Origin: a virus
Lineage: Duplodnaviria; Caudoviricetes
IMG/VR virus record: IMGVR_UViG_3300049144_000095
Coordinates: 96,001-160,000 of that record
DNA length: 64,000 nt
Reading direction: 5' to 3' (one strand)
In this document: one piece after another, positions 1 to 50,830 of the stretch
Position numbering within the stretch: the stretch's first letter is position 1
Layout: each line of letters begins with the position of its first letter
Program-made: the position numbers and the translations under genes
Notes under the pieces: generated by a model
What the model was told of the DNA's origin: nothing
Databases searched by the model: none
Seen by the model: the letters and a program-made list of their open reading frames with translations, nothing else

Positions 1-950
1 TGCGCGTCCGCGTACCTGCGCATGCACACCCCTGGCTTGCCACATGTCCGACTTGCCTCTCTTGTTCTCTTCTTTCCTTCCATCCCTCCCCTTTCTCTCA
101 CATCCCCACATGCCCACATGATTCGGGCATATGGGACAGACTCCCGTGCTGGCCAGTGGAGCGCACACACGCGCGTAGGGAGCCTGTTTCCCCAGGTCAG
201 ACCTAGTGTCAGGACAAATGGGACACCCCTCCTGACCTGCGATGTTTGCAGTTGGCCTATTGCTGACAGAACGTCTCGTAAGCAATCGCGCCGACACAGT
301 GAACCGAGCAACAAAAGCCCAGCTCAGAGGCATGATCAGCGTTGATCCCGACATATGGGACAGGCTTGTGACCTGCGGTTATGTCGAGCCGAGTGCAGGT
401 TTCGAGCGAGAGAAATACCGTCGCCTCTCGTCTCATCTAGAGGCATAAGGCTTGGTTCCACTCTTGTGTTCTCTTGTCTGTATGTGTCTACACAGACACA
501 CCAAACTGGACACATGGGACAGAACTTCTTTCCGTGCTGGTCAAGTGCCTTTTTCTGCACTTCTTTGCGACCCCCTTTGACTCCCCCGAAACCCTCCCCG
601 ACCCTGTCCGTTTCGCCCTGACATGCGGGACTTTCTCCTGTGACCTGGGTCACACATTCGAGTGGAAAGCAGTTTCCACTAGCGTTTGCATACCCCCCAG
701 CTTTCGCAAATCGCTGCCCTTGTATCGCCATGTATGTCCGTTTCCCTCATGGGGCTCTGATCCCTGAGACCCCTTCTGACCTGCACAAATAACTTTCTCG
801 CTAGCATCGTCGCAGGTCATACAGCATGGCCTAGGCCGTTATCTGTTCGTTACCAACTTCCCTTTTGTTGCTGGTCAGAGCGCTATCCAAGTCGCGACCC
901 GGCATGTCCTGACTTTTGGGAGCCTGGAGCGGACAGAGCCATGACCTGCG
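1..950. other. AT-richer, pyrimidine-rich non-coding left-end region (possible genome terminus/terminal repeat)
   Basis: Visibly lower GC than the rest; no credible genes; 4x ATGGGACA (131, 218, 355, 514) and 7x TGACCTG/CAGGTCA (193, 233, 369, 641, 777, 813, 942). Confidence 0.45.
827..838. promoter_or_regulatory. Palindromic operator-like site 1 (TGGCCTAGGCCG)
   Basis: Matches YGRCCTAGGYCR seen 10 times, always intergenic. Confidence 0.7.
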
Positions 951-1317
951 GTTTCTTAATCGTTGCTCTCGCCTTCGATAACGCAATGAATCCCATCATG
1001 CCAATCTTGTGTTGTCCCGCCGGGCACATGGCCAACGGGACGCAACGCACCACGAGGCAAGCCGCACACGCAAACCCCTTCGGGGGGGCCGCGACGTTGC
1101 AGCTTGGGCGAGTGGTCCGGAGAGCGGGAACGCCGGTAGTCGTAACGCCGGTAACCCGATCGATGGGGTTCCTTGAGATGTTCGGAGCCGAACGCGAGAC
1201 GCCCGGGTCGTACCGGGTAGCGCGGGAGGCGCAAGCGGCGAGATGCGGGCCGGAAATCGCATCGCTCGACTCTGGGGGAGGGTGTTTCCCTCCGTCAGTT
1301 CGGGACCGGCGCACGCG

Positions 1318-1530
1318 GAGTACGCAGCCACTTGCCGGAACGCCTTACAGCCGCAACCTGCGCGGCGGGGGAATCCGGGAATGTTGTGGGAAACACGTGT
1401 CAGGGAGTTAGTCCGGCCCGACGAGATGCGGCGCACGTGAGTACGCGTCACTTGCCAGGAAGTGCAACCCCAATCCACGGGGGGAAGTCTGGGAATACAT
1501 GCGGGAAAGCGTGTCAAGTCAGTTAGTCCG
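1318..1530 (+). repeat. Degenerate tandem repeat, 2 units about 120 bp apart
   Basis: Shared blocks GAGTACGC..CACTTGCC, GGGGAA..C.GGGAAT, GGGAAA..CGTGTCA, AGTTAGTCCG at about 1318-1415 and 1439-1530. Confidence 0.6.
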
Positions 1531-1952
1531 CGAACGGTGCCCGTTGCACCCTGGATTCGAGTCAAAACGCACTGCGCGAGTACGGCGCAGATGATTGCAC
1601 GTTCTTCGGTTAGGAAACCCGGGGCGATACGTGCACAACGGTACGGCCGGATACGGGGAGACTCGGAAACTCCCCCCGGCGGCGCACGGGGGCCGCGTAG
1701 CGGCTCCCGTGACACACGCATTACCCGGCGGGACGGATGCTGACGCATCACGCACGGACTGACGTCCTGATCTACGGGACGCGTGACGACGTAACGCGCG
1801 GTCCGTCCCGCCACATCGCTCACGTTTGGTGAGTACGAGCGGACAACTTGCGTCCGATAGGCACCGGTCAAGAGCCGGGCAACCTATTACGGGTGAGCTG
1901 TGTCCGTTCCTCCCACTGCGCGTTGGTGGTGAATCCGGAAAGGGGATGCGGG

Positions 1953-2129
1953 ATGACGGTTTATCTCGCGAACGGCGGAACGCTTACGGTCCTGGCAAAT
2001 GGGACCGTGGAACTCCGCCGGAACGGACAGACAATGCGGGTGAGCGGGCGCGGCAGTCACCGCGCAACGGCGGATTGGGTCCGCTCCCTGGCGTTCGGCC
2101 GTGACGTTCGGTACGTCACGGCAGGCTGA
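1953..2129 (+). CDS. hypothetical protein (58 aa)
   Basis: ATG after CCGGAAAGGGG start-associated motif. Confidence 0.7.
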   Translation: MTVYLANGGTLTVLANGTVELRRNGQTMRVSGRGSHRATADWVRSLAFGRDVRYVTAG

Positions 2130-2178
2130 CAGTCGCTCCGTAAAGGCGGAGCGCGGGCATTCGGAAAGGGCAGGAACC

Positions 2179-3939
2179 ATGGGACGAACCTTTGTTGCAC
2201 TGAACAGCGACGGACAGCCGCGTATGTACGGGTACGCCCGGGGCGCGGGTCACGTCGTCCTGATCCCGGTGGACGCGATGAACGATCCTTTGGCGACGGG
2301 CGGCGTGCTGGAAACGCCGTGCGGCGGTAAGGGAGTGGACTCCGAACGGCTCACGGAGAAGTTCACCGGTGACAAGATGTGCACGCGTTGCGTTGCGTGG
2401 CTCGACTCCGACGGGGGCCGCAACGACGTCGAAGCGGCGCGGGAAGCGAAGTGGGACCGTGAGAACACGGGTCCGTCCCTCGCGGAGATCATGGGCGACC
2501 ACATCCTGATCACGCTTGACGGGGCGCGGGAGGTGAAGGGGCCGGACGCGCGGGAGGAGTCTGCCCCGGAGCCGGTCCGGGAGATCACCCGCGAGGAAGT
2601 GCGGGACCTTATCGGGCGCAGCAAGCGGGGCGCGGCCGTGCGGAAGCGCGAGGCGGCCGTAGAGCGGGAGCGGGAGCGGTTGGCCGCGCAGCGGAAGGCG
2701 CGGGAAGCGCGGGATGCTGCTGCGGAAGCGCGGGAGGAGTCTGCCCAGGAGTCGGAGCCGGTACAGGGTGAGCTGTGGGGCAAGACTCATGCGGAGATGC
2801 GGGCGGCGGTCGCAACCTTCTACGCGTCCGGTAAGCCTGTCCCGGCGGAAGTTGCCGCTCTGCCTGATCCGGCCGTGGTGCAGGTTCAGTGGTCCGGGAC
2901 GAACGGCGCGGGGGACACCGACTGGCGCGGATGCGAGGGTGCCGGTCCGGTGGCGGTCGTCAACGCGGAGCGGACGCACGGGAAGTGCCCGGCATGCAAC
3001 GCGTACATCGAATTGACGGACACCGAGGGGGAAGAGGACTTCCGCATCGGGTCGCACTACGAATACGGGGTCGCGGCCCCCGCCAACCCCCACATGTCGT
3101 CACAGTCGTTGGACGCCGTGGAACACGGGACGGTGCCCGGGTCCCCCGTGATCGCGAACAAGCGGCGCAAGGTCGAAGCACTGTGCAAGCGTTCTGACAA
3201 GGTGGCGCGCGGCGTCACCCAGGGCGGAGCGAAGCAGTGCCCGGAGTGCGCGCGGTCGGTGGAACTGTACAGGCGGGAGCGCACCGTCAAGGGCAAAGCG
3301 AAGGTGCAGTGGGTCTACCCGGAACACGTCGACTCGCGGGACACGTTCGGTCGGTCGGGAGCGGACGGCAAGGGTGAGCGCAAGGTCACGCCGCGCGGGA
3401 GTGGCGCGGACGCCGGTAAGGGCGCGCGGGATCACGGGAGTGTGAACGGCTCCGCGAACACGGGGGCCCACAACCTCCCGCCCGTCCAGCCCAAGAGCGG
3501 ATGGCTGGCCGTGGCCGGTACGTCGGTCCTCTCTGCCACGGTGCGTCCGGGTGTGGATCCGGTGGTGCAGGGCGAGTGGTGCCCGCTGTGCAAGGGTCCG
3601 AAGAACATCGTGCACCGTGGCAAGTCGCGCGGGTGGCGCCGTGACCACTCGAAGAAGATGGCGGCCTGGCACAAGGAGCAGGACGCAAAGCGCGCGGTCA
3701 AGCGGGAGCGGGACACGCAGCAGGGTAAGCGACTCCCCCAGGGTGCGCGTAAGGCCGCGCGGCAGGCTGCGAGCGTCGGGAGTTTCGCCGAAGGGACCGT
3801 GGCCGGTGTGGTGATGCGCGGGACGCGTCCGGAGGACACCCCCGCCGGGACGCCGGTCGGCAAGCGCACGCGACAGGTCAGCAAGCGCACCCCCGCCCCG
3901 GGTGAGGCGGAAGCGGTCAAGGGCGGCAAACGCAAGTAG
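2179..3939 (+). CDS. large basic protein with multiple CxxC zinc-ribbon-like motifs (586 aa)
   Basis: ATG after TCGGAAAGGG; CTRC, CPAC, CPEC, CPLC; charged coiled-coil segment; Arg/Lys-rich tail. Confidence 0.85.
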   Translation: MGRTFVALNSDGQPRMYGYARGAGHVVLIPVDAMNDPLATGGVLETPCGGKGVDSERLTEKFTGDKMCTRCVAWLDSDGGRNDVEAAREAKWDRENTGPSLAEIMGDHILITLDGAREVKGPDAREESAPEPVREITREEVRDLIGRSKRGAAVRKREAAVERERERLAAQRKAREARDAAAEAREESAQESEPVQGELWGKTHAEMRAAVATFYASGKPVPAEVAALPDPAVVQVQWSGTNGAGDTDWRGCEGAGPVAVVNAERTHGKCPACNAYIELTDTEGEEDFRIGSHYEYGVAAPANPHMSSQSLDAVEHGTVPGSPVIANKRRKVEALCKRSDKVARGVTQGGAKQCPECARSVELYRRERTVKGKAKVQWVYPEHVDSRDTFGRSGADGKGERKVTPRGSGADAGKGARDHGSVNGSANTGAHNLPPVQPKSGWLAVAGTSVLSATVRPGVDPVVQGEWCPLCKGPKNIVHRGKSRGWRRDHSKKMAAWHKEQDAKRAVKRERDTQQGKRLPQGARKAARQAASVGSFAEGTVAGVVMRGTRPEDTPAGTPVGKRTRQVSKRTPAPGEAEAVKGGKRK

Positions 3940-4003
3940 CAGGCACGTTCACGCTCGGGGGCCCGGGACGGTCCGGGCCCCCTCCGGAGAGGACTCAGAA
4001 AAG

Positions 4004-4189
4004 ATGAGCTGGATTCAGAACCTGCCCGCGTACGCCATCCGTCGGGGCCTCGCGAACGGGGACTTCAGGCCCGAGCAGATCGCCGAGGCGGAGCGGCGCT
4101 TGACGGAACTCACGGTCGACCGGCCGCGCATGGTGATCGGTCTGGGGGTCCGGGACGACCGGCCACGCGGCGTCGTCGCCGTGGGCTGA
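4004..4189 (+). CDS. hypothetical protein
   Basis: GGAGAGGA upstream; co-oriented ORF. Confidence 0.7.
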   Translation: MSWIQNLPAYAIRRGLANGDFRPEQIAEAERRLTELTVDRPRMVIGLGVRDDRPRGVVAVG

Positions 4190-4275
4190 CACGGCACAGC
4201 TCCGACCGCAGACAGGTGACGTGCGGGGGTCCGGGGACCGTTTCGGACCCCCGCCCCGGAAAGGGAGAGATACGC

Positions 4276-4731
4276 ATGGACGGTAAGGGTGAGACGCGGG
4301 TGCGGCGACGGTGGGCAGTGATGCCCCGGGACGGGAGCAGGCGGGTCGGCAGGGTGGAACGGTCGGTGTACCTGATCTGCGCGGTCGCGGTCGCGGGTGC
4401 GGCACTGCGGGTCGCGGCGCTGCTCTCCGGGACGGGAGCGGACACCGCCGGGGACACCACGGAGCGGGACCGGCAGATGATCATGACCGGTGGCTACCTG
4501 TCGTGGCAGGTGACGGACGGGTGTGCGCAGGGTCCGGTGGAGTGCAGCCGGGTACTGCGGGAGGCCAACGTCGGGGGTCGCGCGTACGGGGTGCGCGTGA
4601 TGAGCGACGGATCGCTGATCGGGCGGGACGACGATCCCGGTGCGGTCACGGTATCGGTGTCGGAGCTGCCCGCCGGTGACTGCTGGTGGGAGGTCAAGGC
4701 GGACGGTTCTACGGAACCGCTCTGCAAGTGA
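4276..4731 (+). CDS. membrane-anchored hypothetical protein
   Basis: CCGGAAAGGGAG upstream; hydrophobic segment VYLICAVAVAGAALRVAALL; 4 downstream Cys. Confidence 0.75.
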   Translation: MDGKGETRVRRRWAVMPRDGSRRVGRVERSVYLICAVAVAGAALRVAALLSGTGADTAGDTTERDRQMIMTGGYLSWQVTDGCAQGPVECSRVLREANVGGRAYGVRVMSDGSLIGRDDDPGAVTVSVSELPAGDCWWEVKADGSTEPLCK

Positions 4732-4828
4732 CGTGACGGAGATGCGCGCCGGGGTCGCCGGGCCGTGACGGTCCGGGGTCCCTGGGGTGCCGCTCGGAAG
4801 CGGTATTCATCGGAGAGGGGTAAGAGAC

Positions 4829-5245
4829 ATGGGCAACTACACGAACCGCGTTTCCCTGCTGCTGGCCGGGATCATCGCGTTGCTGATGGCTCCGTCGGGC
4901 GCGGCGGACGCGGCACCGATGGGCGGGACCCGCGTCGCGGCGGTGCGGTCCGTCTGTGAGACGGGGTACCGGGGGATGCCGGAGTACGACCGCTACTGCC
5001 TGGTCAACGGCACGGCGCGGGACGGGATGCGCCTGTGGTTCGCGGAGATCGACGGCAAGCGCTACAGCGTGCGGGAGCGGCGCGCGATGTGCCGGGACGC
5101 GCGGGCGACCGGCAGCATCCGGCGGGGTGCCATGGACCTGATGAACGACGTCGCCTACGACCGCTACCGCAACTACCGGGATGTCCTGCGGGTGACGGGC
5201 GCGGTCGCGGTGCTGGACTGCCGGGCGCTGGGCATCAAGGGCTGA
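4829..5245 (+). CDS. putative secreted protein
   Basis: Signal-peptide-like N-terminus (LLLAGIIALLMAPSGAADA-A); 4 Cys. Confidence 0.75.
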   Translation: MGNYTNRVSLLLAGIIALLMAPSGAADAAPMGGTRVAAVRSVCETGYRGMPEYDRYCLVNGTARDGMRLWFAEIDGKRYSVRERRAMCRDARATGSIRRGAMDLMNDVAYDRYRNYRDVLRVTGAVAVLDCRALGIKG

Positions 5246-5262
5246 CGGTCGGGATCGGCTGA

Positions 5263-5299
5263 CGGGAGCGCCCCGGGGGACAACTCCGGGGCGCTGACG
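5263..5299 (+). repeat. intergenic stem-loop family member (CTGACG foot)
   Basis: CGGG-AGCGCCCCGG/CCGGGGCGCT-GACG. Confidence 0.7.
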
Positions 5300-5384
5300 C
5301 CAACTTGTCGCGACGGACGTAAAGGCGTCCGGGACTTAATCCGGACCCGGCGGTTGCCGGGTCCGGCGGAAAGGAAAGTCACGC

Positions 5385-5645
5385 ATGGGAATCACCACGG
5401 TTGTCACCGATGGCGGAATGGTCTTCCTGGACGACGCGCCGTTGCCGGTGCGGTCGGAAGACGTCGAGCCGCGCGACTCGGCCACGGTGCCTTCGGCACT
5501 GCGGGACCACGCGCACACCGTTCTGCCGAACGAGCCGGGTGACTGGTGGACGGTCGGGGAGTTCCGGGACAGGGACGGGGAGTTCACCACGGCCGTTGCC
5601 CGGCGGATTCCGGACGGGGTCGTGCGGTACGGGACGTCCGACTAG
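5385..5645 (+). CDS. hypothetical protein
   Basis: GCGGAAAGGAAAG upstream. Confidence 0.75.
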   Translation: MGITTVVTDGGMVFLDDAPLPVRSEDVEPRDSATVPSALRDHAHTVLPNEPGDWWTVGEFRDRDGEFTTAVARRIPDGVVRYGTSD

Positions 5646-5697
5646 GCGCATTCGCGCGGGTCGGCGACAGGTTGTCGGAAACGGAGAGGAAACGGTC

Positions 5698-6036
5698 ATG
5701 GGTGTTTCGCTGAGCAAGCCGGGCGACGCGTTGGGCACGTGGAGCGAAGGGGTCGGGGTGAAGGGTGAGCCGGTGCGGGTCATGGCCGGACTGCCGGTCC
5801 GCAAGATCAGGGGGCCGGTGATCCGGGTGTCCGGAATGCGCTATGCGGGACGGAACATCGTGTCCGTCGCGGTGGAACCGGTGCTGGGTGACCGCATCGG
5901 ACAGTCCACGCTGATCGCGGCGGACGGGGTGGAGCACAGTTACGGAGACGTCGGGCCGCTGCTCCGTCTGCGGTTCTGGTGGCTGCGCCACACGATTGAC
6001 GCCGGAACCTACGCGGGCATCGGCCGGATGCGCTAA
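5698..6036 (+). CDS. hypothetical protein
   Basis: ACGGAGAGGAA upstream. Confidence 0.75.
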   Translation: MGVSLSKPGDALGTWSEGVGVKGEPVRVMAGLPVRKIRGPVIRVSGMRYAGRNIVSVAVEPVLGDRIGQSTLIAADGVEHSYGDVGPLLRLRFWWLRHTIDAGTYAGIGRMR

Positions 6037-6044
6037 CCTGTTCG

Positions 6045-6056
6045 TGGCCTAGGCCG
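6045..6056. promoter_or_regulatory. Palindromic operator-like site 2 (TGGCCTAGGCCG)
   Basis: Intergenic; 22 bp before the next start. Confidence 0.75.
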
Positions 6057-6078
6057 ACGGAAGGGAGAGGGGAACGGA

Positions 6079-6408
6079 ATGACGCAGAACATGTTGGGTG
6101 AAGCGGAGCGATTCTGGGACCAGGACGCGCGGGAGTTCGTCTCCGGGCACATCGTGGTGCGGGTCTCGTTCGCGATGGATCTGTCGAGGCAGTGCGCGGC
6201 CCGGGGCGTGATGCTCACGGACGACGGAACCGTGTACACGTGGACGATCCGGCGTCCCGGCCACGAGGACATGAACGGCTGCCGGAGGATCGCGACGCGG
6301 GTACGCGGGACGCTCCGGGACAACGCGTTCGGCCTGCTGGAGTTCGAGCGGAAGTACGTCGAGCCCGGCCTGTACGTGCGGTACGGCGCGGCGATCAGGG
6401 CGCTGTAG
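6079..6408 (+). CDS. hypothetical protein
   Basis: ACGGAAGGGAGAGG upstream. Confidence 0.8.
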   Translation: MTQNMLGEAERFWDQDAREFVSGHIVVRVSFAMDLSRQCAARGVMLTDDGTVYTWTIRRPGHEDMNGCRRIATRVRGTLRDNAFGLLEFERKYVEPGLYVRYGAAIRAL

Positions 6409-6495
6409 GCACCGGGGAGTCGCGCTAGGGCGGCCGGGAGTCATTCCGGCCGCCCGGGGGTGTCGCCCGGCACTGAGGTACGGAAAGGGGAAGGC

Positions 6496-6966
6496 ATGTA
6501 CGAGGTTGTCCGACCGGAACGCAAGATCGGGACGTCGGACGGGTGGCGGACCGAGCCGGAACAGCGGCGCACGTTCCACACGGCGGCCGGTCTGTTCCGG
6601 TGGGCGCTGCGGGAGCGGGTGTTCAGTCACCGCACCGGCGGGGTGCCGTACCCGACCCGGTTCGATGACGTCCACCTGGGCGACCGGAACGGTGACGAGG
6701 GGTACGACTACCACCTGATCGACACGTTCACCCCGTGGGAGATCACGGGTGAGCATCTGGCCGCGATGCGCCGGGTGCAGCGCCGGTACGCGGAGATCGT
6801 TCACTACCTGCGGGAGGTCGAGCCGGGGTGGGAGCCGGACACGTCCGTGAGCCCGACCGGCAAGATCAGTTACGCGGACAACTCCGTGGTCCTGTACGAG
6901 ATCAGCAAGTACGGCGGGAAGCGGAGCCGGACGCTGGTCGCCCCGCACGGTGACGCCTGCTTCTGA
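6496..6966 (+). CDS. hypothetical protein
   Basis: ACGGAAAGGGGAAGG upstream. Confidence 0.8.
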   Translation: MYEVVRPERKIGTSDGWRTEPEQRRTFHTAAGLFRWALRERVFSHRTGGVPYPTRFDDVHLGDRNGDEGYDYHLIDTFTPWEITGEHLAAMRRVQRRYAEIVHYLREVEPGWEPDTSVSPTGKISYADNSVVLYEISKYGGKRSRTLVAPHGDACF

Positions 6967-6984
6967 CGGACCGGGACCGGCGGA

Positions 6985-9952: not shown

Positions 9953-10480
9953 GTGCGGACCTACGGATACAGGGTCGGCGTTACGTCTCTGGACATGGAT
10001 CCCGAGACCAGCCTGGTCAAGCGTCTGGAGTTCAAGGCGCCGGACCGACATGCGGCTGAGCGCATGATCGACGTGTGGGCGGCGGTGGAACGCAAGACGA
10101 TCACGTCCCGGGTGCTGCTCGCTGACGGGGTCACGTTCCTGGAGGCCGGGAAGTTGCGGATCACCGGTCTCGCCATGGAACTTTCGAACATGTTCAAGGC
10201 GTCCGTCACCGGACCGTTCGAGTTCGGGTACGGCAGTGCGCCGGGCTGGGCGGTCCGCGTGATCATGCGGAACGGGTACGGCGTGAGCATCGCGACGGGC
10301 GGCCCGCACAAGAACGACCCGCCGCCGGTGATCGAGTTCACCACCTGCCACGACGACGGGACGTACGTGCGGTGGGACGTCTGCCCGGACGTGCTGATGG
10401 GCGGGCAGCGCGGGACCGAGGACGGCAGTACGGACCTGGACGAGATCGTCGCGGTCATGCGCAAGCTGCCGCAACCCTGA
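9953..10480 (+). CDS. hypothetical protein (C-terminal half paralogous to 9107-9601)
   Basis: GPF..VR..NGYGVS motif. Confidence 0.8.
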   Translation: MRTYGYRVGVTSLDMDPETSLVKRLEFKAPDRHAAERMIDVWAAVERKTITSRVLLADGVTFLEAGKLRITGLAMELSNMFKASVTGPFEFGYGSAPGWAVRVIMRNGYGVSIATGGPHKNDPPPVIEFTTCHDDGTYVRWDVCPDVLMGGQRGTEDGSTDLDEIVAVMRKLPQP

Positions 10481-10510
10481 CGGTAACGAACGGGTTACAC
10501 TCTGCGGGAA

Positions 10511-10522
10511 CGGCCTAGGTCA
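10511..10522. promoter_or_regulatory. Palindromic operator-like site 3 (CGGCCTAGGTCA)
   Basis: Intergenic; matches consensus. Confidence 0.7.
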
Positions 10523-10580
10523 TTGTCATTTCACCGCTAGAGTCTGCACTGGGATCGCGGAAAGACGGAAAGGGAAGAAC

Positions 10581-22983: not shown

Positions 22984-23035
22984 ACGCCTGGACGGTAATT
23001 CAGGCAAGAGTCACGAACGGGCTACTGAGTTCTGC

Positions 23036-23052
23036 TATCGTGGCCTAGGCCG
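23036..23052 (+). promoter_or_regulatory. -10-like TATCGT fused to palindrome site 4 (TGGCCTAGGCCG, 23041-23052)
   Basis: Intergenic; TAnnnT shares its last T with the palindrome. Confidence 0.75.
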
Positions 23053-23059
23053 ACGGGTT

Positions 23060-23097
23060 CGGGAGTGGCCGGTCCTTCACGGGACCGGCCACTGACG
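23060..23097 (+). repeat. intergenic stem-loop family member (CTGACG foot)
   Basis: CGGG-AGTGGCCGGTCC/GGACCGGCCACT-GACG. Confidence 0.75.
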
Positions 23098-26984: not shown

Positions 26985-27071
26985 CAGGGGGGGGCGCCCT
27001 AGGGTGTCCGGCTCCGGCCGGGCACCCGGGAGTGCCGCTCACAGGGAGCGACACGGAAGGGAGAAGAGACG

Positions 27072-30618: not shown

Positions 30619-30647
30619 TGGACGAGAGTGGCCTAGGTCAGTAGGAT
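30619..30647 (+). promoter_or_regulatory. sigma70-type promoter (TGGACG-17 bp-TAGGAT) with palindrome site 5 (30629-30640) in the spacer
   Basis: Exact 17-nt spacer; resembles the HrdB consensus TTGACN-TAGRRT. Confidence 0.7.
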
Positions 30648-35285: not shown

Positions 35286-35300
35286 CCGCCATTTCCACGG

Positions 35301-35336
35301 GAAGGGGCCTGCCTCATGGCGGGCCCCTTCTTTGTT
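35301..35336 (+). terminator. intrinsic terminator-like hairpin
   Basis: 13-bp stem GAAGGGGCCTGCC/GGCGGGCCCCTTC, loop TCAT, tail TTTGTT. Confidence 0.7.
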
Positions 35337-35339
35337 CTG

Positions 35340-35356
35340 TACGATGGCCTAGGTCA
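35340..35356 (+). promoter_or_regulatory. -10-like TACGAT fused to palindrome site 6 (TGGCCTAGGTCA)
   Basis: Immediately after the terminator; 16 bp before ATG 35373. Confidence 0.75.
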
Positions 35357-43759: not shown

Positions 43760-43776
43760 TACGATGGCCTAGGCCA
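43760..43776 (+). promoter_or_regulatory. -10-like TACGAT fused to perfect palindrome site 7 (TGGCCTAGGCCA)
   Basis: Intergenic. Confidence 0.75.
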
Positions 43777-43926: not shown

Positions 43927-43930
43927 ACAC

Positions 43931-43961
43931 GAGGGGCCCTGGTTGCAACCCAGGGCCCCTC
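43931..43961. terminator. perfect 12-bp hairpin (terminator-like)
   Basis: GAGGGGCCCTGG/CCAGGGCCCCTC; no U-tail. Confidence 0.55.
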
Positions 43962-43966
43962 ACCCG

Positions 43967-43983
43967 TATCGTGACCTAGGCCA
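43967..43983 (+). promoter_or_regulatory. -10-like TATCGT fused to palindrome site 8 (TGACCTAGGCCA)
   Basis: Follows the hairpin; precedes TCGGAAAGGGGAGG and start 44001. Confidence 0.75.
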
Positions 43984-44000
43984 CTCGGAAAGGGGAGGCA

Positions 44001-44405
44001 ATGAGCTTGAGCATGAGCCCAGCCAGAACGCTGAGCATGGACGTACTGGCCAGCAACGGAGAGGCGCTGCGGATCACCGTGCACCGCACCGGCGCAGGCC
44101 ACGTCGAACTGAACAACCTGCTGGAAGTTGCCGAGGTGCTGCGTGACGGAGGCCTCGCCCCCGTGGGCGCGTACAGCGTGCGCGGCTTCCTGTCGCTGGC
44201 CGACGACGACAGCGTGACCATCCTGGACGCCGAGAGTGGTCTGGCCATCCCGAGGCAGTGGACGATCGCGGTCGGCGACTGGCTCCAGATGCTCGCCGAG
44301 GATCTGACGGACGGTCCAGACGGGGCCCCCTCGGTTCAAGTCCACAACGAGGCCTACGGCAACGACCCGGCGATGTGGGCCAGCGGGAAGCTGTCGTCGC
44401 AATAA
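44001..44405 (+). CDS. hypothetical protein
   Basis: TCGGAAAGGGGAGG upstream. Confidence 0.8.
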   Translation: MSLSMSPARTLSMDVLASNGEALRITVHRTGAGHVELNNLLEVAEVLRDGGLAPVGAYSVRGFLSLADDDSVTILDAESGLAIPRQWTIAVGDWLQMLAEDLTDGPDGAPSVQVHNEAYGNDPAMWASGKLSSQ

Positions 44406-44485
44406 GGACGGGGCGACCACCGGATGCCGACCTCATTGTCACTGGGGCGTGGCAGCATCAGCGACTGAACAGAAAGGAGGGGAGG

Positions 44486-44815
44486 GTGACCGTGGTAACG
44501 CCGGACGATTACCTGGGGCCGAGGATCGAGGGCGTGGTCCAATTCCAGGACGGCAAGAGCTACATGGTGAGCGCCAGGCCCCGGAAGGATGTCGGCTTCA
44601 CCGACGGATCGATGATCGGCTTCCGGCCGGTCGGGAAGCGCGGCAGTTCGTGCCTCCAGGTTGGCCTGCTGCGCTGGCTCGTGAGAAACGTGGACGAGCC
44701 GGGCGGGTCACTTGAAGGTCTCGGCCTGCTTTCTACGCTGACCAAGGCCGACGCTGGGACGCTTCTGGCATGGCTGGACGCGCAGGACGGAACGAATGGG
44801 GAGGGTGGTTCATGA
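44486..44815 (+). CDS. hypothetical protein
   Basis: AGAAAGGAGGGG upstream. Confidence 0.75.
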   Translation: MTVVTPDDYLGPRIEGVVQFQDGKSYMVSARPRKDVGFTDGSMIGFRPVGKRGSSCLQVGLLRWLVRNVDEPGGSLEGLGLLSTLTKADAGTLLAWLDAQDGTNGEGGS

Positions 44816-45021
44816 GGTACTTCGAGGTGCACTACGAGGCCCCGGGGGGCGCTCAGTACTACCGGCAGGGCGGTCAGGAGAACCTGGGGTCCACCCTCGG
44901 ATACCAGCGCGCCGAGTCCCTGTACGAGGACGACAGGGGCGTGACCATCACCTTCGATCAGGGCGCTACCATCCAGATCCCCCGCCACCGCCTGATCATG
45001 GTCGTGAAGGGGTCGGCGTGA
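44812..45021 (+). CDS. hypothetical protein
   Basis: ATGA overlap. Confidence 0.75.
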   Translation: MRYFEVHYEAPGGAQYYRQGGQENLGSTLGYQRAESLYEDDRGVTITFDQGATIQIPRHRLIMVVKGSA

Positions 45022-45464
45022 CCTTCCATCATGCGACCGGCAACCTCCTCGACTCCCACTGCACCGGCCTGGTGAACCCCGTGAACTGTGTGGGGGTCGC
45101 CGGGGCCGGACTGGCGAGGCAGTTCAGGGATCGCTGGCCGGTGCAGGTGGCCGAGTACACGAAGTTCTGCCGGGACGGGAAGATGCGGCCGGGCGTCATT
45201 CACGAGGCGCTGCTGCCGACCGGCCAGACCATCCTCAGCGTGCCGACGAAGCGGCACTTCCGGGACCAGTCCCGGCTGGACGATGTCCGGCTCGGGGTGC
45301 GGGCGCTCGCCGAGTGGCTGCGGCGGAGCCCGGTCACGATCGCCATCCCGCCCCTGGGGTGCGGGCTGGGCGGACTACCGAAGGCGGAAGTCCTGGCACT
45401 GATCGAAGAGGAGCTGGGCGAAGCCGAAGTGGACATCTGGTTGTACGACTTCAACGCCATGTGA
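45018..45464 (+). CDS. stand-alone macrodomain protein, DarG-like ADP-ribosylhydrolase (148 aa)
   Basis: GNLL..LVNPVNCVGVAGAGLARQF..PTKRHFR..S.L..+A+PPLGCGLGGL; the PTK lysine (catalytic in DarG) is retained. Confidence 0.9.
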   Translation: MTFHHATGNLLDSHCTGLVNPVNCVGVAGAGLARQFRDRWPVQVAEYTKFCRDGKMRPGVIHEALLPTGQTILSVPTKRHFRDQSRLDDVRLGVRALAEWLRRSPVTIAIPPLGCGLGGLPKAEVLALIEEELGEAEVDIWLYDFNAM

Positions 45465-45481
45465 TCGAAAGGAGGAGGACT

Positions 45482-45808
45482 GTGAGCGAACCCATCAGCG
45501 CCCGGGACCGGCTTCACATCAAGCGCTGCCAAGGCAAGTGCTACATCGATTCGGACCAACCGGACGCAGACTGCCGGAACCTGGACTGGTACCTCGATCG
45601 AATCGAGGAGCAGGCCCTGTACCTGGCGGCAGGGCAGGTGCTCAAACTCCGCCAGAAGGTGGCACGTGAACACGGGGCCGAAGCCGCTCACGGGCTGGTG
45701 CTGGCTGTCAATGCGGTCAGTCCGTACACCCGTCGCACGGACGGCCATCTGATCCGCAAGTCGGACGAGCTGCTGGTCCCCCGGTTCCCCGGGGACGGGG
45801 TGGACTAG
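45482..45808 (+). CDS. hypothetical protein
   Basis: GAAAGGAGGAGG upstream. Confidence 0.8.
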   Translation: MSEPISARDRLHIKRCQGKCYIDSDQPDADCRNLDWYLDRIEEQALYLAAGQVLKLRQKVAREHGAEAAHGLVLAVNAVSPYTRRTDGHLIRKSDELLVPRFPGDGVD

Positions 45809-46092
45809 TGGACGGACAGCGTGCCTACATCACCTTCGACTCGGACAGTACGCTGCGGGTGACCGTCCACGAGGGCTGCGCTCTCTACATGGACGGGACC
45901 CCCGTCCCAGGTATGTCCTGGTCGTTTCCGCTGGCCAGCGACGAGTGCGACCACCTCTTCGGCGCACAGCCCGACCAGCCATTCGCGGACGCGGACCGCC
46001 TCCTGGCCGACCACGGGTGGAACCGTGACGGCACCTGGGTCATGGGGGGCAGCACCTCGGGAACCTATGCACGGGTCACTCGTGCACACTGA
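45808..46092 (+). CDS. hypothetical protein
   Basis: TAGTG overlap. Confidence 0.75.
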   Translation: MDGQRAYITFDSDSTLRVTVHEGCALYMDGTPVPGMSWSFPLASDECDHLFGAQPDQPFADADRLLADHGWNRDGTWVMGGSTSGTYARVTRAH

Positions 46093-46121
46093 CACACAAG
46101 CCACTCGGAAAGGGTGAAGAG

Positions 46122-46448
46122 ATGCAGTTGATGAAGAGCAAGCCGACTTTGAAGGATGTGGACGGCCGGGTGCCCGGCCGGGTCCAGCTCGTCTCCATCA
46201 GACTGGACGAGGACGACCCGAAGCAGATGTGCACGTTCTTCGAGGAGGAGTCCGGCAAGAGGGACCCCTACCTGCGGGCCGAAGGGCTCATGCGGAGCCT
46301 GGAGGACGACTGGCCGGAGCACGAGTGGGCCATGATCGGCAACTGGCGGGCCCGCTACCTCCTCTGGGCCTGGAACATGGAGAACATGGGGCTCGACTTC
46401 GGAGAGGATGCCCTGTCGCCGCAGGCATACCTCGACACCTTCGAGTAA
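46122..46448 (+). CDS. acidic hypothetical protein
   Basis: TCGGAAAGGGTGAAG upstream. Confidence 0.8.
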   Translation: MQLMKSKPTLKDVDGRVPGRVQLVSIRLDEDDPKQMCTFFEEESGKRDPYLRAEGLMRSLEDDWPEHEWAMIGNWRARYLLWAWNMENMGLDFGEDALSPQAYLDTFE

Positions 46449-46473
46449 CCCGACCTCGAAAACGGAGAAAACC

Positions 46474-46809
46474 ATGAAGCCAGCCCCTCTGGACTACGAC
46501 ACGGACGCCGACAACTTCCTCAAGGCAGTGTTCACGGTGCCGCCCTGGGAGGCGGATGTGACCAACCCCAGTGTGCCCGGCGGGCCTACGGTGCGGCCGG
46601 AGCATGTCGTGATCCTCTTCCGGCTGGGCAAGGACCGCCGCTGGTACCCCGACATCATCAACGTGGTGGGGCCCAAGATCACCGGCCCCGGCAAGCGGAC
46701 CAAGCGGCACTACGAGGTGCCCTTCACGAACGTCGCCGAAGGTGACTCGGGTGCGCCGGACTACGCGGTCGCCGAGGCTGAGGCCCTGGCTGCGAAGCTC
46801 AACGCCTGA
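46474..46809 (+). CDS. hypothetical protein (paralog of 15365-15673)
   Basis: ACGGAGAAAA upstream. Confidence 0.8.
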   Translation: MKPAPLDYDTDADNFLKAVFTVPPWEADVTNPSVPGGPTVRPEHVVILFRLGKDRRWYPDIINVVGPKITGPGKRTKRHYEVPFTNVAEGDSGAPDYAVAEAEALAAKLNA

Positions 46810-46880
46810 GGTGCTTCAGTGTGGGCCCGGCTACGGCCGGGCTCTCGCTGTGGAATCTCACGGAAAGGGAGAATAAACGC

Positions 46881-47219
46881 ATGATCGTGGTTTCACCCGG
46901 CATAAAGTTGCGAATCAAAGACAGGTCCAGCTTCGCCACGCAGACTCTCGTCACCCTCTCGTCCCTCATGCTGAAGTACGACGAGGAGATCACGGACGCC
47001 GCGTACAGCGATCGTCTGGCGCATAACGGCCTGGCGGTGTGGCTCCGCGTGGAGCCGATGGTCCTCAGCTCACGGCGCCTGCCGCAGGCCGTGGAGGTTG
47101 AGATCGGCTACGGAGACGAGATCCTGATCGAGGTCGGCCGCAAGGAGGAGCGCGGCGCCTGGCTGGTGGCCCCACCTCTGGTCGGAGACGCCTGCCGTCT
47201 CGTACGCAGGGAGAGCTGA
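46881..47219 (+). CDS. hypothetical protein
   Basis: ACGGAAAGGGAG upstream. Confidence 0.75.
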   Translation: MIVVSPGIKLRIKDRSSFATQTLVTLSSLMLKYDEEITDAAYSDRLAHNGLAVWLRVEPMVLSSRRLPQAVEVEIGYGDEILIEVGRKEERGAWLVAPPLVGDACRLVRRES

Positions 47220-47221
47220 CG

Positions 47222-47470
47222 GTGGCCGCACTCGACGGTTTCCCGCTTCCCACCACGGCTCGGCACGACAAGGACGGCAACCACGTTCCGCCCTTCATTG
47301 CGGAGTGGCGGGCCGCCGCCGACCCGACGTCACCCGCATACGACCCGGACCGTGCGGCGTCCGGCCGGGAGGTGGAGCGGGATCAGCAGCAGAAGGCGCT
47401 GTTCCATGCCCACCTGGAAGAGCACCGGCGCCGGGGTGAACCGGATGTCACGATGGAAGACAAGTACTGA
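47222..47470 (+). CDS. hypothetical protein
   Basis: GGGAGAG upstream. Confidence 0.65.
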   Translation: MAALDGFPLPTTARHDKDGNHVPPFIAEWRAAADPTSPAYDPDRAASGREVERDQQQKALFHAHLEEHRRRGEPDVTMEDKY

Positions 47471-47487
47471 GGAAAGAGAGAAGAGAC

Positions 47488-47754
47488 ATGCACCGGAGCG
47501 AGATCAACGAGGACGTGAAGGTCGAGGACTGCGCGTTCGACCTGGATGGCGACTACGGCTACCGGCCGATCCTGCTCACCGCCATCGCGAGCGTGGACGG
47601 CAGCGACGTGGCTGTCCCGGTCGACCAGGACAGTCCGGAGGGGATGATCCTGGCCCTCACCGAGGAGCAGGGCATGCAGGCGCTGCTCCTGCTGGCCCGG
47701 CAGCTCGGCAAGGACAAGAGCCTGGAGGCCATCACGAAGGACGAGGAGGGGTGA
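47488..47754 (+). CDS. acidic hypothetical protein
   Basis: GGAAAGAGAGAAGAG upstream. Confidence 0.8.
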   Translation: MHRSEINEDVKVEDCAFDLDGDYGYRPILLTAIASVDGSDVAVPVDQDSPEGMILALTEEQGMQALLLLARQLGKDKSLEAITKDEEG

Positions 47755-48137
47755 AGGTGCTTCTCACATCCGCCAGCGAGATCCTTCAGAGTCCGACGAG
47801 GGTGGTTCCTGAGGTCGGCATGGCTGCTTCGGTCATCACGTTCACCGACCGGGAACCGGTCACGGTTGTCGAGGTCATCCCCTTCAAGTCCGGCCCCCTC
47901 AAGGGGCAGGCCCGGGAGGTCGTTGTCACGTATGACGACTGGAAGGTGGTGTCCGGCAGCGAGCACGACGGCTCGGCGGTCTACGAGTACACCTCGAATC
48001 CCGACGGCCATCAGCAGTCATTCGTCCTGAGTACGCGGGGGCGCCGGGTCGGGCACTGGCTCCAGAAGGGGACGGGCGGCATCGGATACTCCTTGGTGCT
48101 GGGCTACCGCGAGCGGTACCGGAATCCGCACTTCTGA
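47751..48137 (+). CDS. conserved phage-type hypothetical protein
   Basis: PEVGM.A....DR..VTV..YEY..NP.G..L.LGYRE.Y.NP.F motif. Confidence 0.8.
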   Translation: MKVLLTSASEILQSPTRVVPEVGMAASVITFTDREPVTVVEVIPFKSGPLKGQAREVVVTYDDWKVVSGSEHDGSAVYEYTSNPDGHQQSFVLSTRGRRVGHWLQKGTGGIGYSLVLGYRERYRNPHF

Positions 48138-48165
48138 ACCCTTTCCGGCTGAGGCGACGTCACGC

Positions 48166-48182
48166 TACAATGGCCTAGGCCG
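48166..48182 (+). promoter_or_regulatory. -10-like TACAAT fused to palindrome site 9 (TGGCCTAGGCCG)
   Basis: Intergenic. Confidence 0.75.
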
Positions 48183-48213
48183 AAAGTAGTGCACGCTGGA
48201 AAGGGGAAGGTGA

Positions 48214-48306
48214 ATGGCCGAACAGAAGACCGAGGCGGGTCTGCCCAGGCGGGAACCGGGTGCGACCAACCCCCCGGCACCGGGGCCTCGTCCGCCGCAG
48301 GAGTAG
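48214..48306 (+). CDS. Pro-rich micro-peptide (30 aa)
   Basis: GGAAAGGGGAAGG upstream; not in ORF track. Confidence 0.4.
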   Translation: MAEQKTEAGLPRREPGATNPPAPGPRPPQE

Positions 48307-48384
48307 TTCCGTACTGCTCTTGACCGTTCAACGAGAGGGCGTCGAAACTGGCGCCCTCTGTTCCATGTTCGGGAAAGGCTGGAA

Positions 48385-48690
48385 ATGACTCCCAGGGAAC
48401 TCTTTGCTGGCACAATTCCTGGCCCGTGCTGGGTGCATGGCAGCGACCTCGGGGTGGACGAGGACGGTGGCCTCTGGGTCCGGGCCACGGCGCACCTCAA
48501 GGAAGGCCTGGCATCCCGGGTGCACCCGCTCGGGGAGAGAATCACCATGAAAGACTTCCGGGAGTACTCCATACTCACTCCCGAGGGGCAGACCATCCTG
48601 GATCCTCGTCACCGAACTGAACCACTCTGGCGGCGAGTTCAGGAGTTGAGCGCCGAATCGATCGGCAGCGACTGGATCGCCGTCCACTGA
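48385..48690 (+). CDS. hypothetical protein (paralog of 57709-58014)
   Basis: WV..DLGVD.DG.LWVR..WI.V. Confidence 0.7.
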   Translation: MTPRELFAGTIPGPCWVHGSDLGVDEDGGLWVRATAHLKEGLASRVHPLGERITMKDFREYSILTPEGQTILDPRHRTEPLWRRVQELSAESIGSDWIAVH

Positions 48691-48716
48691 CGGCACACGG
48701 AAAGAGAGAAGAGACG

Positions 48717-49136
48717 ATGGAGCCGTTCGAGTACCGGAATCGGTTCGCCGACCGCTTCGCCGAGAGGGCCGCCGACAGCGACTACTCCCGCTACAGCCAG
48801 CTTCAGGACACCACTTCGGAGGACATCCGGGCGGCGGCCGAGGCCCTGTGGTGGAAGAAGTGGCGCAGCCCGGAGGACTACAGCGAGCAGGTCACGGAGG
48901 CGGACGTCATCGAGGCCCTGCTCGCCAAGGCCGAGTACTACAGCGACGACAACCACCTGGTCTCGGTCGTCTACGAGACCTACTGGGACATGACGGACAA
49001 GCTCGGCCTGCCGTCCGGCCTGCTCCAGCAGATGGAGAAGGCGTTGTCCCGGAAGTACCTCGACGAGAAGCGGGCCGAGGGCTTCGCGGTGGTCAACAAC
49101 GACCACGGCATCTGGCTGTACCGGTTCGAGGGCTGA
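48717..49136 (+). CDS. acidic hypothetical protein, weakly ArdA-like
   Basis: ACGGAAAGAGAGAAGAG upstream; EYYSDD..VYE.Y..LP..L..G..+YR layout. Confidence 0.75.
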   Translation: MEPFEYRNRFADRFAERAADSDYSRYSQLQDTTSEDIRAAAEALWWKKWRSPEDYSEQVTEADVIEALLAKAEYYSDDNHLVSVVYETYWDMTDKLGLPSGLLQQMEKALSRKYLDEKRAEGFAVVNNDHGIWLYRFEG

Positions 49137-49141
49137 CGACC

Positions 49142-49711
49142 ATGGAGATCATGGAGATCAACTGCGCCCGGAAGTGCAACGGATGCCAGCTCGGCAAGCA
49201 CGTCTGCGGTGGACGCGAGTGCGACGGCCAGGGCTGCTGCGCCTGCCAGGGTGAGACATCCCTCGCCATCCACAAGGATGCGGACGAAGGGGGCTGCCGC
49301 GACCCCCGCATGGAGAGCTGGAGCGGGTCGGCTCGCCTCGACTGGATCGCCGGTGGACGTCAGGTCGGGCAGGAGAGCCTGACCTTCACGGTCCACTGCA
49401 TGGAACAGCCACAGGAGCCGGGCCTGAAGCCCATCGACATGCGGCGCCTGGTGACCCTTCAGCTTGTGTGCGCGGAAGCACGGAAGCGTTACGGCGTGCC
49501 CCCTCGCTCGGTGCGTGTGGACGTGGAAATGGGGCTGGACGACTCCACCACCGAGCCGGTCCTGAGCCGCGCTCGCTGGCGGCTGGGTCAGGGCTTCTGC
49601 CACGGCATGGGAATCCTGGGCGTCGCCTCTCCCCCGCCGGGTGCCCGCCTGGCCGACATCCACGAGCAGCAGCACCCCTCGCCCGCGACTACCGAAGAGA
49701 GTTCGACATGA
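49142..49711 (+). CDS. Cys-rich hypothetical protein
   Basis: C..KC..C..H.C..C..CC.C N-terminus. Confidence 0.7.
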   Translation: MEIMEINCARKCNGCQLGKHVCGGRECDGQGCCACQGETSLAIHKDADEGGCRDPRMESWSGSARLDWIAGGRQVGQESLTFTVHCMEQPQEPGLKPIDMRRLVTLQLVCAEARKRYGVPPRSVRVDVEMGLDDSTTEPVLSRARWRLGQGFCHGMGILGVASPPPGARLADIHEQQHPSPATTEESST

Positions 49712-50730
49712 ACGCAACCAACGACATCACGCCCCTCGGCACTCCCGTCGCGAACACCGACACCCTGGAGGACTCCGCCCTCCTGGCCGCCCTGGACTCC
49801 CGTGACGGGACACTGGACACCCCGGACGGAACCCGCCTGGTCTCCCAGGGGCTCGCCACGACCGACGGTGACGGCAGCTACTTCCTCAGCGCGCTGGGCC
49901 GCGAGAGGGCCGAGGAGATGCGCGCCCGCGAGCGCGACCTGATCAGCGACGACATGCTGCGTGTGATCACGAAGCACGTACCTCGTGCTACCGCCCGGAG
50001 CGCCGGGTGGATCTCCGGGGTCACCTGGTACGAGGAGCGCCCCTACATCGACCTGGTCCGCCCGGCCGACCTGCCCGCCAAGGCGTTCCCGCAGCGCATG
50101 CGAGACCTCCTCGCCGCCGTCCACCACGACGCCCGTTCGGTGCTCGGACTGTTCTCCGAGGTCGACGGGAACCGGCTGCTGTTCGGTGCCCTGCGTCCGT
50201 CCCCCCGGGGGGTGACGCCCCGACTGGGGGAGCCCGACGATGAGCGGGACAAGCGCATCGCCGCCAGCGGCCACGCTGACGCCGTCTGGAGCGACCTGTG
50301 CGCCTCCGACGGACGTCCTTCGGTTCATGCTGCCTGGGCTCCGGGTGATGGCAAGGGTCAGGCGCCGATGGGGTATGCCTTCCACTACGCCAGTCGCACC
50401 GCCCTCCTGACCCTGGAGGACGGTGACCAGTACACCGTCAGCTTCGGCGTCAGCGGCCAGCCCGATGCGGGCCGGACCTGGACCGGACATCGCGCGGACG
50501 TGGCGGTCAAGGCGATGGCCCGGGATCTGTACGGCACGCTGTGCGCCCACGAGTACGGCACCGGACGCGACTCGTGCCCCGGCTGCGACTACACGGGAGA
50601 GGAGTTCGAGTCCGCCCACAAGGGTGAGCTGACGGTCATGCCGGGCAGTCTGCCCAAGCTCACCCGCGTGGTCTTCGACGACTCCCTCGCCCCTCTCAAC
50701 GTCATCCACAAGGTGCACCCCGAGGGCTGA
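49708..50730 (+). CDS. multi-domain hypothetical protein (340 aa): N-terminal wHTH-like segment, C-terminal C.H..CxxC
   Basis: L.SQGL..YFLSALG; LCAHEY..CPGCD; ATGA overlap. Confidence 0.8.
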   Translation: MNATNDITPLGTPVANTDTLEDSALLAALDSRDGTLDTPDGTRLVSQGLATTDGDGSYFLSALGRERAEEMRARERDLISDDMLRVITKHVPRATARSAGWISGVTWYEERPYIDLVRPADLPAKAFPQRMRDLLAAVHHDARSVLGLFSEVDGNRLLFGALRPSPRGVTPRLGEPDDERDKRIAASGHADAVWSDLCASDGRPSVHAAWAPGDGKGQAPMGYAFHYASRTALLTLEDGDQYTVSFGVSGQPDAGRTWTGHRADVAVKAMARDLYGTLCAHEYGTGRDSCPGCDYTGEEFESAHKGELTVMPGSLPKLTRVVFDDSLAPLNVIHKVHPEG

Positions 50731-50774
50731 GAGCGGCCCGGTGCGCCGCTGTTCATCCGCGCACTCGGCTCACT

Positions 50775-50812
50775 CAAGGGCGGCCCTTTCCGGGGTCGCC
50801 CTTGTTTCATTT
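50775..50812 (+). terminator. intrinsic terminator-like hairpin
   Basis: 12-bp stem CAAGGGCGGCCC/GGGTCGCCCTTG plus TTTCATTT. Confidence 0.7.
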
Positions 50813-50818
50813 CCGGAG

Positions 50819-50830
50819 TGACCTAGGCCG
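50819..50830. promoter_or_regulatory. Palindromic operator-like site 10 (TGACCTAGGCCG)
   Basis: Right after the terminator; intergenic. Confidence 0.75.

Follow-up and report, generated by a model that had tools for sequence, protein, structure and literature searches.

The stretch of DNA analysed here, called the window in what follows, comprises 64,000 nucleotides, bases 96,001-160,000 of a 251,159-bp virus record (IMGVR_UViG_3300049144_000095; 65% G+C), and the element in question is a 12-bp palindrome, YGRCCTAGGYCR, that stands in front of many of its genes. Ten exact matches are present in the window (Table 1), compared with a mean of 0.09 and a maximum of two in dinucleotide-preserving shuffles. 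The initial annotation had described the ten as intergenic, and with a crude gene call based on the G+C content of third codon positions (GC3) every one of them was indeed an exact copy lying between genes. For nine of the ten, a ribosome-binding site and a start codon follow on the plus strand 16-70 nt downstream. The network is not limited to the 60-kb arm to which it had been assigned. The entire genome contains 29 exact copies, all between genes by the same gene call, while a control with the pattern reversed and not complemented gave none. Two seeming exceptions to the intergenic placement were found to be mis-set gene starts, and the distance from site to start codon ranges from 16 to 90 nt across the genome.

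The 29 sites are spread over essentially all non-structural transcription units. Besides the arrays in the arm covered by the window, they occupy minus-strand arrays at 64-93 kb and 163-203 kb and units at 217-246 kb. One site stands at the unit located at 6.8 kb and leading into the helicase, primase and polymerase genes and another at a regulatory gene, gntR-1; no site was found in the virion module (about 33-63 kb). The same search was extended to relatives of this phage. Its DNA polymerase is ~70% identical to those of the Streptomyces phages Satis, JustBecause, Kela, Kradal, Quantum, EhyElimayoE and Frankenweenie, which are cluster BM prolate-headed siphophages of 184-200 kb known only from genome announcements without mention of the motif or of a regulator. 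These relatives were detected at the protein level only, and 8 kb of the window compared with GenBank phages by megablast gave no match. In the three BM genomes searched, Satis, JustBecause and Frankenweenie, 15 copies of the 12-mer each were found at syntenic positions, and 14 of the 15 Satis sites have a counterpart in the orthologous intergenic position of the present genome. When these 14 pairs were anchored on the palindrome, the palindrome itself was 93% identical whereas the 40 nt on each side were only ~41% identical, which argues that the element is under selection amid otherwise diverged intergenic DNA.

The strong under-representation of CTAG, invoked in the initial annotation, was borne out genome-wide, with 106 copies observed against 811 expected from base composition or 210 from a Markov model, and 81 of the 106 lie outside called genes. 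One third of all CTAG in the genome falls within CCTAGG, and the full motif is present at 29 of the 36 CCTAGG (in the window, at 10 of 12). Comparison of the 58 half-sites revealed G at -5 and C at both -3 and -2 without exception, T or C at -6, and G or A at -4, where G predominates (46 of 58). Beyond the 12-mer just a purine preference at -7 (42 of 58) and a preference for A, the commonest base, at -8 were seen. One-mismatch variants are not enriched in the genome (23 against 32 in the reversed control). A few of them are intergenic, for example at genome positions 1093, 96641, 199555, 203905 and 219512, and these may be weak sites.

To define the position of the palindrome relative to promoters, 42 sites were oriented by means of their downstream genes, 27 from this genome and 15 from Satis, the latter with curated annotation, and the Streptomyces -10 consensus TAnnnT was searched within 30 nt of them. 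A single TAnnnT was found near the palindrome at 33 of the 42 sites, nearly every site having at most one, and the background rate of the hexamer is 0.0021 per position. Two registers, about 21 nt apart, were evident. In class I (17 sites), TAnnnT starts at -12 to -5 with a peak at -5 (n = 10), where the palindrome begins with the final T of the hexamer, and the palindrome would thus lie over about -7 to +5 of the promoter. In class II (16 sites), TAnnnT starts at +12 to +24 with a peak at +16, that is, 1-12 nt past the palindrome with a peak at 4 nt, and the palindrome would cover the spacer together with some of the -35 region. The five hexamers that had been reported to share a T with the palindrome are all present at the positions given for them, as is the arrangement at 30629 with the palindrome inside a 17-bp spacer. 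The view that the operators overlap the transcription start is consistent with about half of the sites; the rest lie in the spacer or the -35 region with the -10 hexamer downstream, as at 30629, 50819 and probably 10511 in the window. The last has the least clear geometry among the ten, its palindrome being probably placed over the -35 region.

GC-rich, strong hairpins with T tails were found directly upstream of many sites, and 20 kb of the window contained only two good plus-strand terminators, each immediately before a palindrome. The recurrent unit, as predicted from these features, is a terminator followed by a host-type promoter with an embedded palindrome, a ribosome-binding site and a gene. 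A scan for sigma-70 promoters of E. coli type, run at 9/12 stringency, gave no hit in 20 kb, and the promoters here appear Streptomyces-like, with a -10 hexamer plus a poor -35. The palindrome overlaps the core promoter, takes a variable register and has a symmetry independent of direction. Its two promoter registers, its symmetry and the divergent promoters at one locus (see below) are, taken together, what would be expected of an operator rather than of a promoter element.

Table 1. Predicted operators in the window, with their promoter context and counterparts in phage Satis, and class II promoters with a recognisable -35 found elsewhere. Positions are those of the window unless marked otherwise.
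Feature	Position	Strand	Layout	Satis counterpart
Operator copy TGGCCTAGGCCG, not assigned to a class	827..838	.	Noncoding strand-switch region; CAGCAT, -10-like (822-827), adjoins on + strand	
Operator TGGCCTAGGCCG, class I	6045..6056	+	-10 TAACCT (6034-6039) ends 5 nt upstream; palindrome at about the predicted transcription start; gene from 6079	181133, with TAGTAT 6 nt upstream
Operator CGGCCTAGGTCA	10511..10522	+	Nearest -10 TAGAGT (10538-10543), 15 nt downstream; gene from 10581	
Class I promoter-operator	23036..23052	+	-10 TATCGT (23036), last T common with palindrome TGGCCTAGGCCG (23041); gene from 23123	171826, downstream flank conserved
Class II promoter-operator with recognisable -35	30619..30647	+	TGGACG (30619), 17-bp spacer with palindrome TGGCCTAGGTCA (30629-30640), TAGGAT (30642); gene from 30688	166395, identical layout TAGACG-17-TAGGAT
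Terminator hairpin (35299-35332), then class I promoter-operator	35299..35356	+	TACGAT (35340-35345), T common with TGGCCTAGGTCA (35345); gene from 35373	160191
Class I promoter-operator	43760..43776	+	TACGAT (43760), T common with perfect palindrome TGGCCTAGGCCA (43765); 40-aa ORF from 43804	
GC-rich hairpin, then class I promoter-operator	43932..43983	+	TATCGT (43967-43972), T common with TGACCTAGGCCA (43972); gene from 44001	154104
Class I promoter-operator	48166..48182	+	TACAAT (48166), T common with TGGCCTAGGCCG (48171); small ORF from 48210	151154, with TAGACT
Terminator hairpin (50775-50804), then class II promoter-operator	50775..50844	+	Palindrome TGACCTAGGCCG (50819-50830); -10 TAGACT (50839-50844), 8 nt downstream; gene from 50867	150212, TAGGAT at equal spacing
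Class II with recognisable -35	genome 197350		CTGACA-18-TAGGCT	
Class II with recognisable -35	genome 246131		TTGACA adjoining palindrome	
Class II with recognisable -35	Satis 71174		TTGACA adjoining palindrome	

The initial annotation had proposed a phage-encoded dimeric regulator acting through operators in core promoters, with a helix-turn-helix (HTH) protein at 60760 as its candidate. The first part fits all the computed evidence. The candidate does not: the product of ORF 60760-61188 matches no Pfam or PHROG family and was set aside. The predicted reader of the palindrome is instead GntR-1, a protein of 244 aa encoded on the minus strand at genome 210-944 (L005:210-944:-), 95 kb outside the window. 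It has an N-terminal GntR winged HTH (Pfam PF00392; 35.1 bits, cut-off 27) and a C-terminal UTRA (chorismate-lyase-like) domain (Pfam PF07702; 61.4 bits, cut-off 23.8), the effector domain that separates HutC from the FadR, MocR and YtrA subfamilies. A profile built from GntR-1 and its homologues gave NagR/YvoA and DasR as best matches in the Protein Data Bank (PDB). The AlphaFold model (mean predicted local distance difference test score, pLDDT, of 83) shows helices at residues 7-21, 33-39 and 44-56 followed by the wing, and its best structural match is DasR (9i0v/4zs8), then YvoA, YydK and PhnF; the top 50 Foldseek matches are all HutC-type regulators or their effector domains. By domain content, predicted fold and DNA-reading residues, GntR-1 is assigned to the GntR/HutC subfamily. 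Homologues in GenBank are labelled merely 'helix-turn-helix DNA-binding protein'.

Residue roles were taken from the literature on NagR and its family (PMC4333415, PMC4918961). In the crystal structure of NagR with DNA (PDB 4WWC), Arg38 reads G-5 and Arg48 reads G-4, Gly69 of the wing contacts the minor groove at -7, and positions -3 to -1 have backbone contacts only (PMC4333415). The equivalents of Arg38, Arg48 and Gly69 in GntR-1 are R34, R44 and G65, which are invariant in five BM-type sequences. In the effector domain, the phosphate-binding motif of strand E2, whose arginines hold the phosphate of glucosamine 6-phosphate in DasR and NagR, is represented by R130-Q131-R132, which aligns with R133-V-R135 of NagR and is invariant in 11 homologues, the middle residue being Gln and not V, L or I. 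The Ser at the N-terminus of the helix after Arg-x-Arg is retained, but not the Ser-Tyr-Thr segment that precedes helix E1. GntR-1 was not found to be an orthologue of DasR, HutC, PhnF, TreR or any other named regulator, as NCBIfam equivalog scores were far under their cut-offs (best PhnF, 55.7 against 156.8), and the effector therefore cannot be deduced from orthology. A small, anionic or phosphorylated ligand is plausible for the UTRA domain. Glucosamine 6-phosphate is not implied, since the sugar-contacting residues are not retained. Regulators of the HutC family bind palindromic operators as homodimers and are released by ligand (PMC4333415, PMC4918961), and from the family GntR-1 would be expected to dimerise via its UTRA domain.

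The palindrome also resembles a known operator of this family. The consensus of dre, the DasR operator, is A(G/C)TGGTCTAGACCA(G/C)T (PMC4398421), in which T occupies -3 and A occupies +3. The perfect phage palindrome TGGCCTAGGCCA agrees with it in length, dyad, CTAG core and guanines and differs only at the symmetric positions -3 and +3 (positions 4 and 9), where C/G replaces T/A in all 58 half-sites. T at -3 was seen in none of them, and no copy of TGGTCTAGACCA is present in the phage genome. Evidently, the phage motif as defined by its sequence is dre-like, not a dre.

The linkage of GntR-1 to the palindrome provides further support. A palindrome lies 23 nt upstream of the gntR-1 start, inside a 45-bp island, CTGGCGTTGyGG..CAGCATGACACAATA-CGGCCTAGGCCA-CAAG, which is invariant in five phages (this one, Satis, JustBecause, Frankenweenie and Kela) while the remaining intergenic region has diverged (~60% mean column identity over the alignment). 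A plausible promoter, TGGCGT-17-CACAAT, would start transcription of gntR-1 at the palindrome. On the opposite strand TATTGT comes directly after the palindrome, so that the two divergent promoters would be under a single operator. A one-mismatch palindrome, CGGCCcAGGCCA (genome 1093-1104), is found between the same divergent genes, 126 nt from the gntR-1 operator, and this copy may serve as an auxiliary operator.

The regulator was found, at ~66% identity, in all seven GenBank BM phages (gp101 in Satis). A wide search yielded about 70 more homologues of 45-73% identity, many on contigs of 140-270 kb; a scan of viral contigs with GntR-1 peptide patterns gave no confirmed relative. Loci of 20 kb were read on four phage-like contigs (about 200, 142, 260 and 31 kb) whose regulators are 51, 45, 60 and 48% identical to GntR-1, respectively. 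All four are syntenic, retain both arginines and have an exact YGRCCTAGGYCR 30-60 nt upstream of the regulator gene. In just one phage homologue, of 46% identity and on a 272-kb contig (JACVYG010000007.1 of assembly GCA_014712245.1), R34 is replaced by Leu. The 20 kb read there are without YGRCCTAGGYCR and have two copies of TnGCCTAGGCAA before the gene, a sequence without G-5, the base contacted by Arg38 in NagR. This covariation of residue and base is suggestive only. Regulator homologues are present on contigs of 185, 253 and 272 kb (P0026, P0055, P0067) in assemblies labelled as Streptomyces isolates. Phages related to this one may survive in cultured strains, either as episomes or in a carrier state.

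Taken together, the HutC fold, the retained arginines, the dre-like motif, the palindrome on its own promoter and the co-occurrence of the two point to GntR-1 as the reader, and we consider it likely that YGRCCTAGGYCR is the operator of this phage-encoded GntR/HutC repressor, with binding and repression predicted from sequence and model. A GntR-1 dimer would place one winged HTH on each half-site YGRCCT, with the G/R pair at -5/-4 contacted by R34 and R44, just as the GG of dre is read by NagR and DasR. As the operator overlaps a host-type TAnnnT core promoter, the bound repressor would exclude RNA polymerase, at the start site in class I and at the spacer and -35 region in class II. The proposed regulon comprises 29 promoters, ten of them in the window, which head non-structural transcription units, namely the small-gene arrays, the replication unit and gntR-1, the last being presumably autoregulated through its own palindrome. 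The UTRA domain would allow release of the repressor by a small, probably anionic or phosphorylated ligand. GntR-1 may turn early genes off late in infection, or it may keep them silent until a signal arrives.

One could go further and regard GntR-1 as a metabolite-gated master switch, by which the ~29 early, accessory and replication promoters would follow the nutritional or developmental state of the host and the phage would pause in starving hyphae or spores without CI-type lysogeny. The near-phage-length contigs of 185, 253 and 272 kb in Streptomyces-isolate assemblies, together with a tyrosine recombinase gene in the present genome, are hints in this direction, and the proposal is a tentative and rather doubtful one. 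The recombinase/integrase (genome 69069-70175, minus strand; L008:15069-16175; Pfam PF00589, E = 3e-23) is not shared by the BM cluster phages, and the 251-kb phage may integrate or resolve episome dimers.

Several observations weigh against GntR-1 as the repressor acting at the palindrome. Few transcription-factor regulons are as sharply defined as this one, in which the CCTAGG core does not vary and degenerate copies are almost lacking. No known base contact explains the C at -3 by which the motif is defined, as NagR makes backbone contacts only at -3 to -1. The wing of GntR-1 reads SDGNRPP against GRGT/GKGT in NagR and DasR, and the sugar-stacking Tyr167 of NagR (Tyr177 of DasR) is a Glu (E171) in GntR-1, so that details of both DNA and ligand recognition may differ from the models. 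The residue-base covariation comes from one divergent homologue, read over only 20 kb. Site 827 has no nearby gene, as it lies in a 2.8-kb stretch without a codon-biased ORF (none in window 1-1950). Finally, the phage encodes further DNA-binding proteins, several HTH proteins being annotated in Satis, and our survey covered part of its ~400 proteins.

This last point leaves room for another phage protein as the reader, be it a second GntR/HutC paralogue, ORF 60760 or the small HTH proteins annotated in the Satis relatives. Nevertheless, no other candidate comes from a family with known operators of such length, dyad and G positions, and we hold this explanation to be unlikely. The second paralogue (genome 250377-251111, plus strand; L016:10377-11111) is 28% identical to GntR-1, and its gene is convergent with gntR-1. 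It was rejected as the reader, having lost both DNA-reading arginines and having no counterpart in GenBank phages although the BM phages have 15 sites each. Its own operator is probably another inverted repeat, GTGAGCTAGTA-15 nt-TACTAGCTCAC, found upstream of it (L016:10300-10365).

A host regulator of HutC type, above all DasR, might read the palindromes instead. That would connect the non-structural genes of the phage directly to the 'feast or famine' circuit of the host, which responds to N-acetylglucosamine, and leave the phage GntR with some other function. Two symmetric substitutions separate the motif from dre, DasR is universal in Streptomyces, and cross-binding is conceivable as the substituted position has no base contact in NagR (PMC4333415). 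With DasR as the reader, drift to dre would be expected, yet T at -3 and TGGTCTAGACCA are both absent from the phage. Moreover, a phage regulator with the right residues stands behind a conserved site, and the motif changes together with it in one lineage. A host reader is thus quite improbable.

That the palindrome is a promoter element of a phage-modified or phage-specific transcription machinery, and not an operator, appears very improbable. Its constant proximity to start codons, its frequent position after a terminator and its sharpness, which recalls phage promoters, would suit such an element. A fixed element would not take two registers ~21 nt apart relative to the -10 hexamer, though, and the palindrome is symmetric and predicted to serve divergent promoters at gntR-1; no gene for sigma-70 region 2 was found in the phage.

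Scarcely credible is the absence of any transcriptional role, the palindrome being a methylation or restriction target (CCTAGG is an AvrII-type site) or a short RNA hairpin that survives between genes as CTAG is purged from coding DNA, for although CTAG is strongly depleted and lies mostly outside called genes and the BM phages encode a DNA methyltransferase, the symmetric conservation extends three bases past CCTAGG on each side, the placement is fixed to -10 hexamers, and a hairpin with a possible stem of just 4 bp would not be transcribed from the class II copies upstream of the -10.

A few further features of the window and the genome are recorded here. Operator 827 and a one-mismatch copy, TGACCTgGGTCA at 641, are contained in a gap of ~2.8 kb (59% G+C, without a codon-biased ORF) that starts at about genome 95,160, includes window 1-1950 (genome 96,001-97,950) and marks the switch from minus-strand to plus-strand genes. 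A repeat, GACAnATGGGACAG, occurs five times in this strand-switch region (125, 208, 349, 508 and 1993), possibly as the iterons of an origin; alternatively, the region may be a hub of regulation. Directly after operator 23041 comes a leader (23053-23095) with a hairpin, GGGAGTGGCCGGTCC...GGACCGGCCACTG (23060-23095), that is retained nearly base for base at Satis 171826. The sequence ACGAACGGGnTAC is found at 10480-10492 and 23008-23020, about 15-30 nt upstream of operators 10511 and 23041, and is possibly a second element common to these two promoters. The two CCTAGG of the window outside the operator pattern (26995-27006 and 61796-61807) have a common context, CG(C/G)CCTAGGGTG, and may be members of another repeat family. 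An Rfam scan of the window at gathering thresholds gave no match. The sequencing runs listed with this DNA are five soil-metagenome DNA runs, with no RNA among them. In the replication module, the UvrD-type helicase (L005:8668-11130, plus strand) carries an intein (Pfam Intein_splicing), and the same gene of a relative (L029) contains an intein as well, there with a LAGLIDADG domain. The first 126 bases of the record (genome 1-126) recur at 251004-251129 and the last 30 bases do not extend the match; from this repeat the record is judged to be permuted or terminally redundant with an untidy junction.

With GntR-1 as the predicted reader, the sites provide the first concrete regulatory map for BM-like giant Streptomyces phages, ~90% of whose genes are without known function: the promoters of one regulon, the starts of its transcription units and the probable controlling protein. 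The switch would be of an ordinary kind, one so far without a published description in these giant phages; neither the motif nor a phage regulon of HutC type turned up in the literature searched. The pair formed by GntR-1 and TGGCCTAGGCCA would be orthogonal to DasR and the dre core TGGTCTAGACCA and hence a possible genetic part in Streptomyces. It also offers a natural experiment in HutC specificity at a position without direct base contacts. Should a host metabolite prove to be the effector, the virus would read host physiology via a classical bacterial sensor domain.

Similar networks are known from other phages. Gp71 of mycobacteriophage L5 acts on about 30 dispersed stoperators, asymmetric 13-mers that are oriented with transcription and affect elongation. 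As proposed here for GntR-1, a single phage repressor serves tens of sharply defined sites across the non-structural parts of the genome. Unlike stoperators, the sites of the present phage are dyad-symmetric, overlap core promoters and are locked to a -10 hexamer in 33 of 42 cases; the repressor families differ as well, and L5 gp71 has no ligand-binding domain. The operators of C1 of phage P1, a plasmid prophage, are asymmetric 17-mers scattered over the genome, and C1 itself is controlled by antirepressors. Here too one repressor governs many separate transcription units of a large phage, as would GntR-1, which differs from C1 by its small-molecule domain and symmetric sites. Among bacterial regulators, NagR/YvoA of Bacillus subtilis has the same three DNA-reading residues as GntR-1, whose wing is one residue longer; the native sites of NagR are few and imperfect palindromes, whereas those of the phage are many and nearly perfect. 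DasR of Streptomyces coelicolor likewise combines a GntR winged HTH with a UTRA domain, both guanine-reading arginines and the R-x-R motif, and acts on many dispersed promoters. GntR-1 differs from DasR in being only ~25% identical to it, in being virus-encoded and in having viral promoters as its predicted targets.

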